In this document: piece after piece, positions 20,240-26,165 of the stretch
How positions within the stretch are numbered: the first letter of the stretch is position 1
Layout: every line of letters starts with the position of its first letter
Assembly (NCBI GenBank): GCA_022573225.1
Contig: JACZUI010000007.1
Coordinates: 2,183-66,182, forward strand
Direction of reading: 5' to 3'
DNA length: 64,000 bases
DNA from: Acidobacteriota bacterium
GTDB taxonomy: Bacteria; Actinomycetota; Acidimicrobiia; Spongiisociales; ZC4RG35
Made by a program: the position numbers and the translations under genes
Notes under the pieces: generated by a model
The model's database searches: none
Told to the model about the DNA's origin: nothing
Seen by the model: the letters and a program-made list of their open reading frames with translations, nothing else

Positions 20240-20330
20240 GCGCTCATCTAGAGCGGTGGAGGGAACAGGCCCTTTGATACCGCGGCAACCGGCGCAAGCA
20301 CGGTGCCAATGCCTGGATCGATGAGCTGAC
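20240..20330 (+). promoter_or_regulatory. SAM-I (S-box) type riboswitch aptamer in the metH leader
   Basis: GCUCAUC UAGAG CGGUGGAGGGA ACAGGCCC UUUGAUACC GCGGCAACC ... GGUGCCAAUGCC ... GAUGAGC. P1 pairs 20242-20248 with 20320-20326. The GGUGGAGGGA kink-turn/P2, GGCAACC..GGUGCC P3 and AAU junction all match the S-box consensus. P4 looks minimal or absent, so this may be a SAM-I/IV-like variant. Confidence 0.8.
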
Positions 20331-20435
20331 CTGGGGCTTTGGCCTTTGGCGCTCCTCAAGCGTTTCGAGAGAAACTAAGGAGTTGCCCACGGTGACCAAG
20401 TCAGATCCGTGCTGTATCCAATGTCCGGAGAAACG

Positions 20436-23400
20436 ATGACGGCCTATCTGGATGCCGTTGCGTCCGGTGTCGTCATTTTCGACGGTGCCACTGGCACCAA
20501 CCTCCAAACAGTGGGCTTGACGGCCGACGATTTCGGCGGCCCGTCATTGGAAGGCTGCAACGAGCTTCTCAACGTCACCCGTCCCGACGTGGTCCGGGCC
20601 CTGCACAGGTCGTTTCTGGATGTCGGGGTGGATGTCATCGAAACGAATACGTTTGGCGCCTTCTCGGTGCCGTTGAGCGAATACGGGTTGGAGAAACGGT
20701 CATACGAGATCGCCGCCGCCGGTGCCACTCTCGCCAGGGAGACCACCGACGCGTATACGGCCGCTGATGGGCGTCCCCGTTATGTAGCCGGATCGATCGG
20801 ACCCGGGACCAAGTTCGCCACTCTCGGCCAGATCACCTATATGGACTTGGTCGATTCCTATCAGGTTGAAGCGAGAGGCCTGATCGACGGGGGCGTCGAC
20901 CTCGTGATCATCGAAACCCAGTTCGATCTTCTTGGCGCCAAGGCCGCCATCGAAGGTGCCCGCCGCGCCATGCGTGACGCCTCGGTTGATCTTCCCGTCC
21001 AGGTCCAGGTCACGATCGAACTGACCGGTCGCATGTTGCCCGGAACAGAGATTGGAGCCGCCCTCAGTACGCTCGAAGCCCTCCATCCTGATGTGATCGG
21101 GCTCAACTGCGCCACCGGGCCCGGCGAGATGTACGAGGCGATCCGTCACCTCACCCGCTACTCGAGCGTTCCGGTCTCGGCGATCCCAAACGCCGGGCTT
21201 CCCCATGTCGAGAACGGGGAGATGGTCTATGACCTCGGCGCCGATGACCTGGCCGCCCATCTCGCGTCTTTCGTCACCGAGTTTGGGGTGGGAGTCATTG
21301 GGGGTTGCTGTGGCACCGGCCCCGAGCACCTCAGCGCAGTGGTGGAAGCCGTTCGGCCTCTCGAACCGAAGGACAGAGATCCTGAGTCGATCCCGTCGGC
21401 GGCTTCGATCTACAGCCAGGTTCCGTTCGATCAGGATGCATCATTCCTGATCATCGGCGAGCGGGCCAACGCCAACGGGTCAAAAGCCTTCCAGGAGGCG
21501 CTGCTGTCGGACGACCTCGAGTCGTGCGTCGCCATCGGAAAGAGTCAGTTGCGTGAGGGGGCTCATCTGGTCGACCTCTCTGTGGACTACGTCGGGCGCG
21601 ACGGGGTGGCCGACATGGAGAGGCTTGCTGCGGCTTTCGCTACCGATGTTGCAGCCCCGGTTGTGCTCGACTCGACCGAACCTGAGGTGATGGAGGCCGG
21701 TCTCCAGCAGCTCGGGGGGCGTTGTGTCCTGAACAGCGCCAATCTGGAAGATGGCGAAGGTGAAGGCTCCCGCATCGACCGGGTACTGACGCTGGCCCGC
21801 ACCTATGGCGCAGCGGTCATCTGCCTCCTGATCGACGAGGAGGGCCAGGCCAGGACTCTCGAGTGGAAGATGAGAGTGGCCCATCGGATCCACGACCTGG
21901 CTGTTGAGAAGTACGGGCTCGAGCCTTCCGATCTCATCTTCGATGCGCTGACCTTTCCGCTGACTACCGGTGGCGAGGACCTGCGACGCGACGGGATAGC
22001 CACGCTGGAGGCGATCAAGAGGATCAAGAAAGAGCTGCCGGGGACACGGACGGTGCTCGGAGTCTCCAATGTGTCCTTCGGTCTCAATCCGGCGGCTCGA
22101 CGGGTCATCAACTCGGTGTTTCTCCATGAAGCGGTGCAGGCAGGGCTCGACGCCGCGATCGTGCATGCCGGGAAGATCGAGCCGCTGTCGAACATCGACC
22201 CGGAACAGCGCGAGACCGCCTTCGATCTGGTGTACGACCGTCGAGAAGAGGGATACGACCCGTTGGAGAAGCTGCTGCAGCTCTTCGCCGGCGTGACCAC
22301 GACCGACGAGTCAGTCGACACTTATGAGGGCCTGGTTGTTGAGGATCGGCTCCCCAAGCGGATCATTGATGGTGATCAGAAGGGCATTATCGAGGACCTG
22401 GATCAGGCCCTGGACATGGGGCATAAGCCACTGGACATCATCAACCGTTTTCTGCTCGCCGGGATGAAGGTCGTCGGCGACCTGTTTGCGACCGGTGAGA
22501 TGCAGCTTCCGTTCGTCCTCAAGTCCGCCGAAACGATGAAGAAGGCAGTTGCACATCTCGAACCTCTCATGGAGAAGGCCGAGACGAATACTCGCGGCAA
22601 GATCGTGCTGGCCACCGTGCAAGGCGACGTCCATGACATCGGGAAGAACCTGGTCGACATCATCCTCAGCAACAACGGCTACCAGGTCCACAACCTCGGG
22701 ATCAAGGTGAGTATCTCCGAGATGGTCGCTGCCTATCGGGAGATGGGGGCCGATGCCATCGGGATGAGCGGACTGCTGGTGAAGTCGACGCTGATCATGA
22801 AGGACAACCTCGAGGAGCTGGAACGCCAGGGTCTCGGTCATGTTCCTGTCTTGCTCGGAGGTGCTGCCCTGACTCGGCGGTACGTCGAGTCTGATCTTCG
22901 CTCCCGCTACGCGGGACCCCTCTATTACGGCAAGAACGCCTTTGCCGGGCTCGACGCCATGGCCCACATCGCCGCCGGCGATGCGGCTCCTCAGCCGACG
23001 GCGCCCCGGGTGCGAGCCCGCGGTGCCGGAGAATCCGAGACTGTGCCGAATCGGTCGCCCTCGGTGAAGACCGACAATCAGATCTTCAAGCCACCGTTCG
23101 TGGGCTCCCGCGTCGTGAAGGGCATCTCCCTTGACGAGATAACCCCCTTCTTCAACCTCACCGCCCTGTTTCGGAACCAGTGGCAGTATCGGCCGGAGTC
23201 CGGCGAGACCGATGCGGAGTTCAAGGAGCGACTCGCTCCTTTGTTGCGCGAGCAGATGGCGCGAGCCCGTGCCGAAGATCTTCTCCACCCTCAGGTTGTG
23301 TACGGATACTTCCCGGCCAACGGCGACGGGGACGAGCTGGTGATCTGGGAGGATGAAGATCGAGTCTCGGAGCGCGCTCGGTTCGCCTTTCCCCGCCAGC

Positions 23401-23900
23401 AGGAAGATCCGTTCTTTTGCATCGCCGACTTCTTCAGGCCGGTCGGCGAGGAGATCGACTACGCCGCGTTCCACATCGTCACCATGGGACGCCGTATCTC
23501 AGAGCGCGCAGCCGAGCTGTTCGCCGCCGACGAGTATCAGGACTACCTCCATCTTCACGGACTGGGGGTGGAGATGGCAGAGGCGCTCGCCGAGCACTGG
23601 CATCACCGGGTCAGAACCGAATGGGGTTTCGCTACCGAGGACGGGCCGTCATTGCTCGGTCTGTTCCGTCAGAAGTATCGGGGGGGCCGGTATTCGTGGG
23701 GCTATCCGGCTTGTCCCGACCTGGAGGACAACGAGAAGGTGGCCGACCTCCTGGGCGCCAAACGCATCGGGATCGAGGTCGGTGAAGCCACGTCGTATCA
23801 GTACCAGCCGGAACAGACGACATCAGCGATCATCTGTCATCACCCTCAGGCCAAGTACTTCATCGCCCGCAAACCCAAGGAGGCCCGCAATGCTGATTGA
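20436..23900 (+). CDS. metH: Cobalamin-dependent methionine synthase
   Basis: All modules are recognisable: Hcy-binding (GLNCATGP, GGCCGT), pterin-binding, the B12 cap and binding region (DVHDIGKN, the DxHxxG motif) and the AdoMet activation domain. I chose ATG 20436 because GGAG lies 5 nt upstream. Confidence 0.95.
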   Translation: MTAYLDAVASGVVIFDGATGTNLQTVGLTADDFGGPSLEGCNELLNVTRPDVVRALHRSFLDVGVDVIETNTFGAFSVPLSEYGLEKRSYEIAAAGATLARETTDAYTAADGRPRYVAGSIGPGTKFATLGQITYMDLVDSYQVEARGLIDGGVDLVIIETQFDLLGAKAAIEGARRAMRDASVDLPVQVQVTIELTGRMLPGTEIGAALSTLEALHPDVIGLNCATGPGEMYEAIRHLTRYSSVPVSAIPNAGLPHVENGEMVYDLGADDLAAHLASFVTEFGVGVIGGCCGTGPEHLSAVVEAVRPLEPKDRDPESIPSAASIYSQVPFDQDASFLIIGERANANGSKAFQEALLSDDLESCVAIGKSQLREGAHLVDLSVDYVGRDGVADMERLAAAFATDVAAPVVLDSTEPEVMEAGLQQLGGRCVLNSANLEDGEGEGSRIDRVLTLARTYGAAVICLLIDEEGQARTLEWKMRVAHRIHDLAVEKYGLEPSDLIFDALTFPLTTGGEDLRRDGIATLEAIKRIKKELPGTRTVLGVSNVSFGLNPAARRVINSVFLHEAVQAGLDAAIVHAGKIEPLSNIDPEQRETAFDLVYDRREEGYDPLEKLLQLFAGVTTTDESVDTYEGLVVEDRLPKRIIDGDQKGIIEDLDQALDMGHKPLDIINRFLLAGMKVVGDLFATGEMQLPFVLKSAETMKKAVAHLEPLMEKAETNTRGKIVLATVQGDVHDIGKNLVDIILSNNGYQVHNLGIKVSISEMVAAYREMGADAIGMSGLLVKSTLIMKDNLEELERQGLGHVPVLLGGAALTRRYVESDLRSRYAGPLYYGKNAFAGLDAMAHIAAGDAAPQPTAPRVRARGAGESETVPNRSPSVKTDNQIFKPPFVGSRVVKGISLDEITPFFNLTALFRNQWQYRPESGETDAEFKERLAPLLREQMARARAEDLLHPQVVYGYFPANGDGDELVIWEDEDRVSERARFAFPRQQEDPFFCIADFFRPVGEEIDYAAFHIVTMGRRISERAAELFAADEYQDYLHLHGLGVEMAEALAEHWHHRVRTEWGFATEDGPSLLGLFRQKYRGGRYSWGYPACPDLEDNEKVADLLGAKRIGIEVGEATSYQYQPEQTTSAIICHHPQAKYFIARKPKEARNAD

Positions 23901-24681
23901 GTCGGCCGGCTGGCTGCGAGTCGCGGAAATCAACCCGCCGGAGTTGCCCGATCTCAGCCATCTGGATTTGGCGCCGGCCTGGAGCCATGTGCTCGTCACC
24001 GACAACGTCTTCGGTCGGATCCGGGTGTCGCCCTATGCCTTCTCGGCAAGGATCACCCATGACACGCCTCACGTTCACCCAACCGTCGTGGTGTCGACGC
24101 GGGATCGGAACATCCTCGCCATCGAATCCGAGGTTCGGGGTGCGCTGGGGAATGGGGTGAACTCGTTCCTCGTGGTGATCGGTGACACGGTTCCTCACAT
24201 CGATCACATGGCCCATCACTATGAGATTGTCGAGCATCTTCGGCGTCTTCGAGACGACCTTCCCAACTTCGAGGTAGGGATGCCGACCCGTTTCCGGGAA
24301 TGGCAGTTCCGTCGTCGGATCGAGCTCGGTACCGATTTCTTCGTGACGGGCCCGGTGCTGGATCCGGACGTGATCGGCCCCGAGATGGATCGGCTCAACC
24401 TGCGCGACGACGATCCGCCGGTCTTGCTGATGGTGATTCCCCCCTTCAGTCCGACGTGGGTCGATCAGATGGAGTCCATTGGAGCGGTTCCCTCGAGTGA
24501 AAAGCTTCGAAAGCGACTGGCCGAGGTTCCCCCCGACGTGCACCGGAAGCTCGGGTGGGAGATAACAGCCGAGATGGAACAGGCTGCCCGTGACGCCGGG
24601 GCGGCCGGCGTTGTGCTTATGGGCCTCAAGTTCAGCTCGGTTGTCGATGAGGCGGCTCAGGCCTGGCCAGAACTCCAGTAG
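23890..24681 (+). CDS. Methylenetetrahydrofolate reductase (MetF-like) family protein
   Basis: VAEINPP, VLVTDNVFGRIRVS, VVVSTRDRN...FLVVIGD and FFVTGPVLD follow the MTHFR TIM-barrel pattern. The ATG overlaps the metH stop by 11 nt. Confidence 0.65.
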   Translation: MLIESAGWLRVAEINPPELPDLSHLDLAPAWSHVLVTDNVFGRIRVSPYAFSARITHDTPHVHPTVVVSTRDRNILAIESEVRGALGNGVNSFLVVIGDTVPHIDHMAHHYEIVEHLRRLRDDLPNFEVGMPTRFREWQFRRRIELGTDFFVTGPVLDPDVIGPEMDRLNLRDDDPPVLLMVIPPFSPTWVDQMESIGAVPSSEKLRKRLAEVPPDVHRKLGWEITAEMEQAARDAGAAGVVLMGLKFSSVVDEAAQAWPELQ

Positions 24682-24691
24682 CTTCCGGGGC

Positions 24692-25345
24692 GTGACTCCT
24701 TTCGATCGCCAGGTGCGGGTCCAGATCTACCGCCATGTGATCGCCAGTTCCGAGGGGCCATCTGTGGCGCAGATCGCGGCAGAACGAGGATGGGCCCCCG
24801 ACGAGGTGGCCGAGGCCTTCCACAGACTCGCATCGGAACATCGGATTGTCCTGGTCCCTGAGGAGGACCGAGTCTGGATGGCCCATCCGTTCTCCGGAGT
24901 AGAGACCGGGTACGAGGTGATAGTCGGGAATCGCTCGTGGTTTGCCAACTGTGCCTGGGATGCCCTCGGCGTCCTGGCGTTGATGGGCGACGGCAAAGCC
25001 ATCTCGGCGCACGGCGAGACCGAGTTGGTGTGGAGCGTCGCCAACGGCACGGTGAGTCCCGATGGGGTGATTCACCTCCCAGTCCCGGCTCGAGAGTTCT
25101 GGGACGACATCGGCTTCACCTGAGGGAACATTCACGGGTTCCGGTCGGAATCCGAGCTTTCCTCCTGGCTGAGGGAGCACAACCAGGCGATTGGGTACAT
25201 TGCCCCGGTGCAGCAGATCTTCGAAATGTCGGTCGACTGGTACGCAGCGCGGCTGGATGAGGACTGGAGACCGCCTTCCCCCCAAGAGGCCTCCTCCTTG
25301 TTTGCCAGCCACGGGCTCGTCGGAGATTTCTGGGCGCTGGGCTAG
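24692..25345 (+). CDS. MerB-like (organomercurial lyase family) protein, 217 codons with an in-frame TGA (25121-25123) read as candidate selenocysteine
   Basis: The N-terminal HTH-like region and NCAWDALGVLALMG correspond to the MerB Cys96/Asp99 motif. The TGA aligns with the MerB FCC(159/160)HVHFF position. The frame stays open for 73 further GC3-rich codons (GNIHGFRSESELSSWLREH...) to TAG 25345. A SECIS-like hairpin follows. If TGA is a true stop, the CDS is 24692-25123. Confidence 0.55.
25135..25154 (+). promoter_or_regulatory. SECIS-like stem-loop downstream of the MerB-like TGA
   Basis: CGGGUUCC-GGUC-GGAAUCCG: an 8-bp stem with one G-U pair and a GGUC tetraloop at +23..+26 from the U of UGA. 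It resembles the E. coli fdhF SECIS apical loop. Confidence 0.5.
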
Positions 25346-25358
25346 GGGCGTCGAGACA

Positions 25359-26165
25359 ATGAGCCGTTTTGGATCTGAACAAGAGATGCTTGCCTTCTTC
25401 GACGAGCGCTATCTCCACGTCCTGGCACCGGTCATGCTGGAGATCGAGGCCGAGGCTCGGGGAACCGACTACGGAAGCGTCTCATGGAGCACCCGCGGAC
25501 AGGTCGAGCGGATGGCGACACACCTTGACCTTGGCAACGACAGCCGCCTGCTCGACATCGGGGCGGGGGCGGGCTGGCCCGGGCTCTATGTGGGCCAACG
25601 AACAGGGTGTCATGTCACCATGCTCGACTTTCCGGTCCATGGACTGAAGCTGGCGCTCGATCGGGCCGCTCGCGATTCGGTGGCGGCTCATGCGTCTGTA
25701 GCCGATGGGGCGTTGCTCCCCTTCTCCGAGGGCGTCTTTGAGGGAGTGATTCATAGTGACCTGTTGTGTTGCCTGACCCGTAAGCTCGAGGTTCTGGCGG
25801 AGTGCCGGCGAGTGGTTCGCCCAGGTGGGAGGATGGCCTTCACGGTGATAGAGGTGGTGCCCGACCTGGCTCCTGACGCGCACACGATCGCGGTCGAGTC
25901 GGGTCCGGAGTTCGTCGACACCGAATCGCCCTACGCCGATGTTCTCGCGGAAACGGGTTGGACCTTGAGCCAGGTTGAGGATGTGACCTCCGAGTTCCAG
26001 TCCATGGGTCGAACGCTGCTGCAATCAAGGGAGTCCCGCCGCGAGGCTCTCGTGGCCTTACTGGGCGCTGAGAACGTCGAGGAGATGATCGACCGCAACT
26101 GGGGAACCGTCGCATCGACAGAAGAGGGCCGGCTGTGTCGACGCCTCTACCTGGTCGAGGCATGA
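25359..26165 (+). CDS. Class I SAM-dependent methyltransferase
   Basis: Motif I LLDIGAGAGWPG, plus the post-I acidic residue and motif II/III pattern (VRPGGRMAF). I chose ATG 25359. The ORF-track start at 25191 is in a different frame from the coding-like MerB continuation and overlaps it. Confidence 0.8.
   Translation: MSRFGSEQEMLAFFDERYLHVLAPVMLEIEAEARGTDYGSVSWSTRGQVERMATHLDLGNDSRLLDIGAGAGWPGLYVGQRTGCHVTMLDFPVHGLKLALDRAARDSVAAHASVADGALLPFSEGVFEGVIHSDLLCCLTRKLEVLAECRRVVRPGGRMAFTVIEVVPDLAPDAHTIAVESGPEFVDTESPYADVLAETGWTLSQVEDVTSEFQSMGRTLLQSRESRREALVALLGAENVEEMIDRNWGTVASTEEGRLCRRLYLVEA

Follow-up and report, generated by a model that had tools for sequence, protein, structure and literature searches.

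Does the in-frame TGA of a MerB-like gene end its translation, or is it read as selenocysteine (Sec)? This question is raised by positions 24692-25345 of the 64-kb window analyzed here, by which we mean the whole stretch of 64,000 nucleotides from contig JACZUI010000007.1 (assembly GCA_022573225.1, Acidimicrobiia). The original prediction, made from the letters of the window, had proposed a candidate selenoenzyme of the organomercurial lyase family. In this study, we believe it very likely that this gene encodes a MerB-family enzyme in which UGA is decoded as Sec by means of SelB and a selenocysteine insertion sequence (SECIS), giving a predicted Cys-Asp-Sec triad. The narrower claim, that a SECIS is present and the UGA truly encodes Sec, is, judged from sequence comparison, slightly more secure still. 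Organomercurial lyase activity specifically, which is argued from analogy with MerB, is proposed with much lower confidence than the Sec codon. The parts of the gene are as follows.

24692..25345, forward strand: complete MerB-like gene, predicted to encode a selenoprotein, with 217 codons including Sec144 and then a TAG stop (from translation)
24950..24952, forward strand: codon TGT of Cys87, equivalent to MerB Cys96 (alignment, invariance)
24959..24961, forward strand: codon GAT of Asp90, equivalent to MerB Asp99 (alignment, invariance)
25121..25123, forward strand: in-frame UGA, read as putative Sec144, equivalent to MerB Cys159 (conservation, alignment)
25124..25342, forward strand: C-terminal 73 codons, lost or called as a separate small open reading frame (ORF) by gene callers (conserved, PF03243 match)
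25135..25154, forward strand: predicted bacterial SECIS hairpin, located within the gene itself; its stem measures 8 bp in the window and its apical loop is GGUC (25143-25146)

Translation agreed with the frame that had been proposed. GTG 24692 opens a 143-codon frame up to TGA 25121-25123, and 73 further sense codons, in which the G+C content of third codon positions is 0.81, lead to TAG 25343-25345. The homologues begin at a Met or Val aligned with the GTG 24692 start. Mechanical ORF calling yielded the cut-off ORF 24590..25123 instead of the full gene and gave the next gene a TTG start at 25191, in another frame and overlapping the MerB-like C-terminus, so the truncation and the spurious start that had been foreseen were both reproduced. 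TGA is the commonest ordinary stop in the window and ends 32 of the 50 large ORFs. Because of this, genome-wide reassignment of UGA was ruled out, and the recoding would be local rather than a change of the genetic code.

The conceptual product, with the TGA read as Cys, matched PF03243 with 69.7 bits (gathering cut-off 27 bits); this match covers residues 67-184 and profile positions 1-125 of 126, and the TGA lies within it. The two halves flanking the TGA also match their own halves of the profile separately, the C-terminal 73 codons at profile positions 87-125. When the product was aligned by HMMER with the solved MerB and MerB2 structures, FANCAWD paired with YAWCALD (Cys96/Asp99) and FT-[TGA]-GNIHGF paired with SF-C159-(C/S)HVHFF, which places the TGA in the Cys159 column and reproduces an alignment that had been made by eye. 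Cys87 is unchanged in 150 of 150 loci and Asp90 in 150 of 150 Sec-form loci. Thus, two columns of the triad are occupied as in canonical MerB, and the third holds UGA (putative Sec) and not Cys. The resulting triad would be analogous in its chemistry to that of MerB without being the one that defines MerB. The AlphaFold2 model of P0004, a Cys-form homologue 47% identical to the window protein, reached a predicted local distance difference test (pLDDT) score of 86.4, and its Foldseek search gave 10 significant PDB matches, every one of them MerB or MerB2, at a template modeling (TM) score of about 0.6. Judged from this model of a homologue, the window protein is predicted to have the MerB fold.

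In a sizeable subgroup of the Cys forms (28 of the top 150; e.g., P0130, P0132, P0140 and P0150), Cys replaces Asp at the Asp99 column. This C-C-C pattern implies a different metal-binding or catalytic arrangement inside the MerB-like family.

To describe the recoded codon among relatives, related-locus DNA was taken from species-representative genomes, which gave 151 distinct loci. The codon after '...FT' was TGA in 144 of them, TAG in 6 and TGC in 1. The same frame is open for 71-75 codons past the recoded codon, and conserved at the protein level, in nearly all loci. Over 4,446 sequence pairs, the substitutions in the stretch 3' of the TGA numbered 125,724 at codon position 3, 64,473 at position 1 and 54,649 at position 2, that is, third positions changed about twice as often as either of the others. 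The 73 downstream codons are conserved with third-position-biased substitutions, and the frame is under purifying selection, with no sign of decay. The carriers belong to Acidimicrobiia, Gaiellales and other Thermoleophilia, several orders of Actinomycetes (Mycobacteriales among them), Acidobacteriota (Vicinamibacterales), Gemmatimonadota and Chloroflexota.

The protein databases gave a similar picture. In a database of 5.8 billion proteins, about 115 of the best 120 matches were 139-145 residues long and covered the first 66% of the query only; these short matches reached down to 45% identity and stopped at residue 143. P0004 was a rare full-length match and carries FT-C-GNIHGFRS. When P0004 was compared exhaustively by HMMER with 1.84 billion cluster representatives, 860 relatives were returned, of which the best 150 were inspected. 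About 64 of these terminate at '..FT', and Cys occupies the recoded column in about 70 of the 77 full-length homologues spanning it, as the original prediction had expected. A few of the spanning homologues show Trp or Gly there, and we interpret these residues as the product of translating TGA with an alternative genetic code.

Two side observations concern the same alignment. Three orthologues appear damaged: L040 has lost 1 nt immediately after the hairpin and retains 11 downstream codons; in L148 the downstream reading departs from the family after about 13 codons and hits the end of the fetched locus at 27, so that a frameshift is suspected; and L063 ceases to align at residue 98. Either pseudogenes or errors of assembly could account for these loci. 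Upstream of the UGA, at a distance of 4-5 positions, the codons of Asp139 and Ile140 (window 25106-25111) are nearly fixed as GAC ATC (GAC in 142 of 144, 0.11 bit; ATC in 143 of 146, 0.14 bit), and the codon of Asp90 is far looser (GAC 102, GAT 48). This fixation may reflect an upstream nucleotide-context constraint on Sec decoding.

The hairpin downstream of the UGA carries the next part of the argument. Counted from the U of UGA, the G and U of the GGUC apical loop in the E. coli fdhF SECIS lie at a distance of about 23-25 nt. The window hairpin is CGGGUUCC-GGUC-GGAAUCCG, with the loop at nucleotides 23-26 when the U of UGA is counted as 1. The 8-bp stem and GGUC loop that had been proposed at 25135-25154 were found as described, with the G and U of the loop at positions 24 and 25, and the family-conserved core of the stem is 7 bp (25136-25142 with 25147-25153). 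A GGUC-loop hairpin with an 8-bp stem occurs only once in the window, on either strand, and just four, including this one, have at least 6 bp. In 76 TGA loci, positions 16-22 pair with positions 27-33 around a loop, G23 G24 U25 C26, that is all but invariant. Covariation was evaluated on 65 distinct sequences: 97.4% of the cells were paired, five of the seven pairs had changed on both sides, and none of 500 shuffles attained any of the observed measures. Sliding the 3' arm by 1-3 columns reduced the pairing to 46-66%. In L022, CGG has become AGG and UCG has become UCU, so that A-U replaces C-G as the closing pair with the amino acids unchanged.

Codon usage inside the hairpin tells the same story. 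Its Arg is CGG and its Ser is UCG, each in 148 of 149 loci (synonymous entropy 0.06 bit each). By comparison, Arg9 and Ser68, which are just as conserved within these genes, are encoded by 5-6 different codons (2.05 and 1.46 bit). Residues +5 and +10 are coupled by the stem, Gly occurring with Ala, Pro or Ser, Ala with Gly, and Leu or Phe with Glu. The Arg-Ser dipeptide is fixed by the predicted SECIS loop, a co-constraint of RNA and protein. Three UGA forms deviate: in L210 the loop reads GGAC (Thr ACG replacing Ser UCG) above a stem that keeps all 7 of its pairs, in L053 it reads GGGC (Ala GCC), and L180 keeps GGUC with 4 of 7 pairs in the standard register.

As controls, 69 Cys-form loci (TGT or TGC) from Bacteroidota, Alphaproteobacteria, Chloroflexota and Deinococcota were fetched with a single protein, P0123. 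The GGUC loop was found in none of the 69, and where the Sec forms have Arg-Ser, the Cys forms have E-N, D-D, E-S or similar. L008, the sole TGC locus nested among the Sec forms, has CGC/GAC at these codons, and its hairpin is degraded. The expectation that orthologues keep the TGA together with the hairpin, and that Cys forms do without it, was thus confirmed, and the conservation of UGA and hairpin, the covariation and the Cys forms without a hairpin together support the proposed selenoenzyme.

The orthologues with TAG bear indirectly on the presence of Sec machinery. A scan of 80 loci seeded with the Blastococcus jejuensis orthologue found TAG with an intact hairpin in exactly five cultured Geodermatophilaceae (B. 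jejuensis, B. capsensis, B. saxobsidens, Geodermatophilus saharensis and Modestobacter excelsi); the other 75 loci had TGA, including the nearest relative outside the family (78% identity). The tRNA-Sec of Geodermatophilaceae has been reported to carry a CUA anticodon, and other Sec-UAG genes have been reported in this family (PMC5330540); those named there after Mukai 2016 are FdhA, UGSC and AhpC. The recoded stop appears to track the anticodon of tRNA-Sec, with UAG where tRNA-Sec(CUA) has been reported. TAG in Geodermatophilaceae is not predicted by a pseudogene, a split gene or generic read-through.

ARAGORN detected no tRNA-Sec in any of the fetched loci. It did detect, on seven of them, tRNA genes that are long (82-91 nt) and have the anticodon CUA, and it labeled these 'tRNA-Pyl':

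L161 1150-1239; L164 2841-2928; L167 5143-5224; L175 5570-5657; L176 61-151; L178 65-148: long CUA tRNA genes
L174 1085-1173, reverse strand: long CUA tRNA gene

Their hosts are Hyphomicrobiales, Cupriavidus, Pirellulaceae, Thermoleophilia, Terriglobia, Vicinamibacterales and Phycisphaerae. These tRNAs look like UAG-decoding tRNAs with a long variable arm, either tRNA-Sec-like or allo-tRNA-like.

From the family membership, the alignment of UGA with Cys, the conservation, the covariation, the contrast with the Cys forms and the UAG switch, we infer the following mechanism. SelB would bind the GGUC hairpin while the ribosome sits at the UGA and would deliver Sec-tRNA(Sec), the decoding signal being a hairpin with a 7-8 bp stem embedded in the 11 codons after the UGA. 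Sec144 would replace the second catalytic thiol (MerB Cys159) and would complete, with Cys87 and Asp90, the Cys-Asp-Sec triad. If the enzyme works as MerB does, its sulfur and selenium would hold a soft metal(loid) center, and the carbon ligand would be protonated and the carbon-metal(loid) bond cleaved.

Several results weigh against Sec decoding. The window contains no tRNA of any kind, so it contains no tRNA-Sec, and no SelA, SelB or SelD domain was found in its 36 large ORFs. Genome contigs were searched for tRNA-Sec(CUA) with the pattern GGACTCTAAATCC N{15,45} GGTTCGA, whose guessed stem was evidently wrong, and 18 hits were obtained, 0 of them in Geodermatophilaceae. Folding 25121-25175 as a single sequence recovered the expected hairpin, with an energy that is ordinary for G+C-rich coding sequence (z = -0.28). 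No SECIS model of Rfam matched at the gathering threshold or at E <= 10, and one spurious microRNA hit was returned. That the hairpin is more than chance follows from the comparison with other loci and not from the single-sequence fold energy. In favor of Sec decoding, Sec machinery has been reported in another order of the Acidimicrobiia (bioRxiv 10.64898/2026.04.03.716425), which is indirect support and no evidence on the source organism itself.

The alternative that survives best, which we regard as quite improbable, is read-through without selenium, in which a near-cognate or suppressor tRNA places Trp, Cys or Arg at the UGA and the hairpin stimulates the event. Downstream hairpins can promote stop-codon read-through in other systems, and such read-through would agree with a 64-kb window in which no Sec machinery was found. 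However, the loop sequence and its spacing fit a bacterial SECIS of the fdhF type that SelB binds, and the pairing of Sec with Cys at a catalytic thiol is the classic signature of selenoproteins. Furthermore, the switch to UAG is confined to Geodermatophilaceae, whose tRNA-Sec is reported to have the matching CUA anticodon (PMC5330540).

A split gene, in which a 143-residue protein ends at the UGA, a C-terminus of about 71 residues is made by re-initiation or from a start of its own, both products then join, and the hairpin acts in translational coupling or mRNA stability, seems to us more improbable still. The third codon past the stop is ATG in 58 of 76 loci, and gene callers do emit C-terminal ORFs of about 71 residues, which are entered as genes of their own in P0230, P0233, P0246 and P0266. 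However, the window and its whole subclade have ATT or ATC at this codon, and no ATG, GTG or TTG stands ahead of the conserved GNIHGFRSE. The two parts always share one frame and adjoin with zero spacing; TAA or TAG hardly ever serves as the stop, TAG occurring just in the lineage with tRNA-Sec(CUA); and the homologues have their catalytic Cys at this column, so a split would remove a catalytic residue. A pseudogene or a sequencing or assembly error, in which TGC or TGT was mutated to or misread as TGA, needs one base change and could point to damaged loci such as L040 and L148, but it is effectively refuted by the same TGA in 144 independent assemblies at 35-87% protein identity, by the purifying selection on the downstream frame and by the co-evolving RNA structure.

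With Sec decoding preferred, the genes around the MerB-like gene can be considered.

20241..20327, forward strand: S-adenosylmethionine (SAM) riboswitch at the head of a possible operon (RF00162, 70.6 bits against a gathering score of 44.4)
20409..23900, forward strand: cobalamin-dependent methionine synthase MetH (five MetH Pfam domains)
23923..24681, forward strand: divergent ORF resembling methylenetetrahydrofolate reductase (MTHFR), start approximate, ending 10 nt before the GTG start
25359..26165, forward strand: class I SAM-dependent methyltransferase with Methyltransf_11/25 domains, starting 13 nt after the TAG

The MTHFR-like ORF matched PF02219 with 19.2 bits, below the cut-off, and NF006396 with 46.5 bits on its MTHFR part, far below the cut-off; the methyltransferase attained no curated NCBIfam cut-off. 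An acyl-ACP desaturase is also among the window neighbors. The MerB-like gene lies two genes 3' of metH on the same strand, with intergenic gaps of 10-15 nt, and may be under the control of the SAM riboswitch. The order riboswitch, MetH, MTHFR-like, MerB-like (Sec form) and methyltransferase is common to the window and L001 only; it points suggestively, and no more than that, to methyl metabolism. L001 (CAXMPS010000106.1) is the closest relative of the window (MetH 96%, MerB-like protein 87%), and its record is labeled 'uncultured Gammaproteobacteria'. In the window, genes characteristic of Actinomycetota are present (F420H2 quinone reductase, three luciferase-like monooxygenases, DUF222 and two LtrA), and all other close relatives are Acidimicrobiia. 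The Gammaproteobacteria label of L001 is probably a binning or labeling error.

With respect to the substrate, the analogy to MerB makes an organomercurial, for instance methylmercury, the leading candidate. The surrounding genes and the curated models give no pointer to a substrate. No mer gene adjoins the gene in the window, and none is among the recurrent neighbors of 80 loci. The neighborhood was rejected as a clue to function, since synteny is lineage-specific only (e.g., PurM-like and Lrp-like genes in Gaiellaceae) and is not kept between lineages. The canonical MerB equivalogs scored 20.5 bits against a cut-off of 200 (NF033555) and 30.2 against 193 (NF009710). More broadly, we tentatively speculate, as a doubtful proposal, that the clade is a so far unrecognized, mer-operon-independent organometal(loid) lyase, which cleaves trace methylmercury or another methylated soft metal(loid), Se, As, Sn or Te for example. 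It would be common among Actinomycetota, Acidobacteriota, Gemmatimonadota and Chloroflexota of aerobic soils, fresh waters and the sea. If this were true, the clade would be an overlooked sink in environmental demethylation, with a Sec nucleophile capturing trace methylmercury or another methylated metal(loid). In the lineage of the window, the lyase might then be tied to the methyl cycle, given its place in the order from riboswitch to methyltransferase.

The annotation of the family has been systematically distorted. Hundreds of its database entries stop at 139-145 residues, so that one catalytic residue and the last third of the protein are missing, and NCBI names the members truncated 'organomercurial lyase' or 'hypothetical protein'. 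One family has received three mis-annotations: the 143-residue fragment, the separate C-terminal gene of about 71 residues, and a read-through with Trp or Gly at the UGA, the last in entries that resemble alternative-code calls (P0005, P0129, P0169 and P0199). No NCBIfam model attains its cut-off on the MerB-like product, and because no such model covers the family, pipelines will go on truncating it. Surveys of demethylation based on merB would overlook these genes or misjudge them as truncated. In addition to this mis-annotation, the points of interest are the breadth of the family, an unusually clean SECIS, and UAG orthologues in cultivable Geodermatophilaceae. In that lineage, which includes cultured strains, the family would add a UAG-encoded selenoprotein beyond the three cited in PMC5330540.

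Studies have shown that one selenoprotein of the MerB family exists already. SaoL (NF040728), the 'selenocysteine-assisted organometallic lyase' of the SAO locus, was described by Haft & Gwadz (bioRxiv 10.1101/2022.07.06.499078, J Bacteriol 2023), so the original prediction needs correction where it leaves MerB out of the characterized selenoprotein families, though the window gene is not SaoL. SaoL has a Cys-Sec (CU) dipeptide and a nine-gene SAO neighborhood and is restricted to anaerobes (bioRxiv 10.1101/2022.07.06.499078), and the reviews of selenoproteomes from 2022 and 2026 list no other PF03243 entry. Like SaoL, the clade in this study consists of PF03243 proteins that have a putative Sec at the MerB Cys159 column, keep the equivalents of Cys96 and Asp99, and are truncated at the UGA in databases. 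In contrast to the CU dipeptide, it has FT-U-[G/S/A], and Thr precedes the UGA in 97% of loci. Its carriers are mostly aerobic soil and marine phyla, including cultured aerobic actinomycetes, and no SAO genes were found around the window gene or in the neighbor survey of the loci. The SaoL model gave 28.6 bits against a cut-off of 140 on the product, over residues 5-98 only. No description of the clade was found in the searchable literature, and the main texts of GOS 2008 and Peng 2016 mention no MerB-type selenoprotein; BSepDB/deep-Sep may list members as 'SaoL/MerB-like'.

With canonical MerB (R831b; PDB 3F0P and 3F2F) and MerB2 (5C17), the protein shares the predicted fold, the catalytic columns and a similar length. 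It differs in having only 17-21% identity, a putative Sec in place of Cys159 and no Cys160, and, compared with canonical MerB, in having no adjoining merR, merT, merP or merA genes. The hairpin resembles the E. coli fdhF SECIS in lying directly 3' of the UGA inside the coding sequence with a GGUC apical loop; however, its loop is one nucleotide farther from the UGA, and its 7-bp stem has no conserved bulged U. Similar to the UAG selenoproteins of Geodermatophilaceae, the Blastococcus, Geodermatophilus and Modestobacter orthologues have TAG and a SECIS hairpin at the Sec column, whereas the window gene uses TGA, and the MerB-like family is not among the UAG-Sec genes that PMC5330540 cites. Taken with its sequence features, these comparisons indicate that the window gene probably belongs to a second clade of MerB-family selenoproteins, distinct from SaoL, which lies outside the anaerobe-restricted SAO system and is carried by abundant aerobic phyla.

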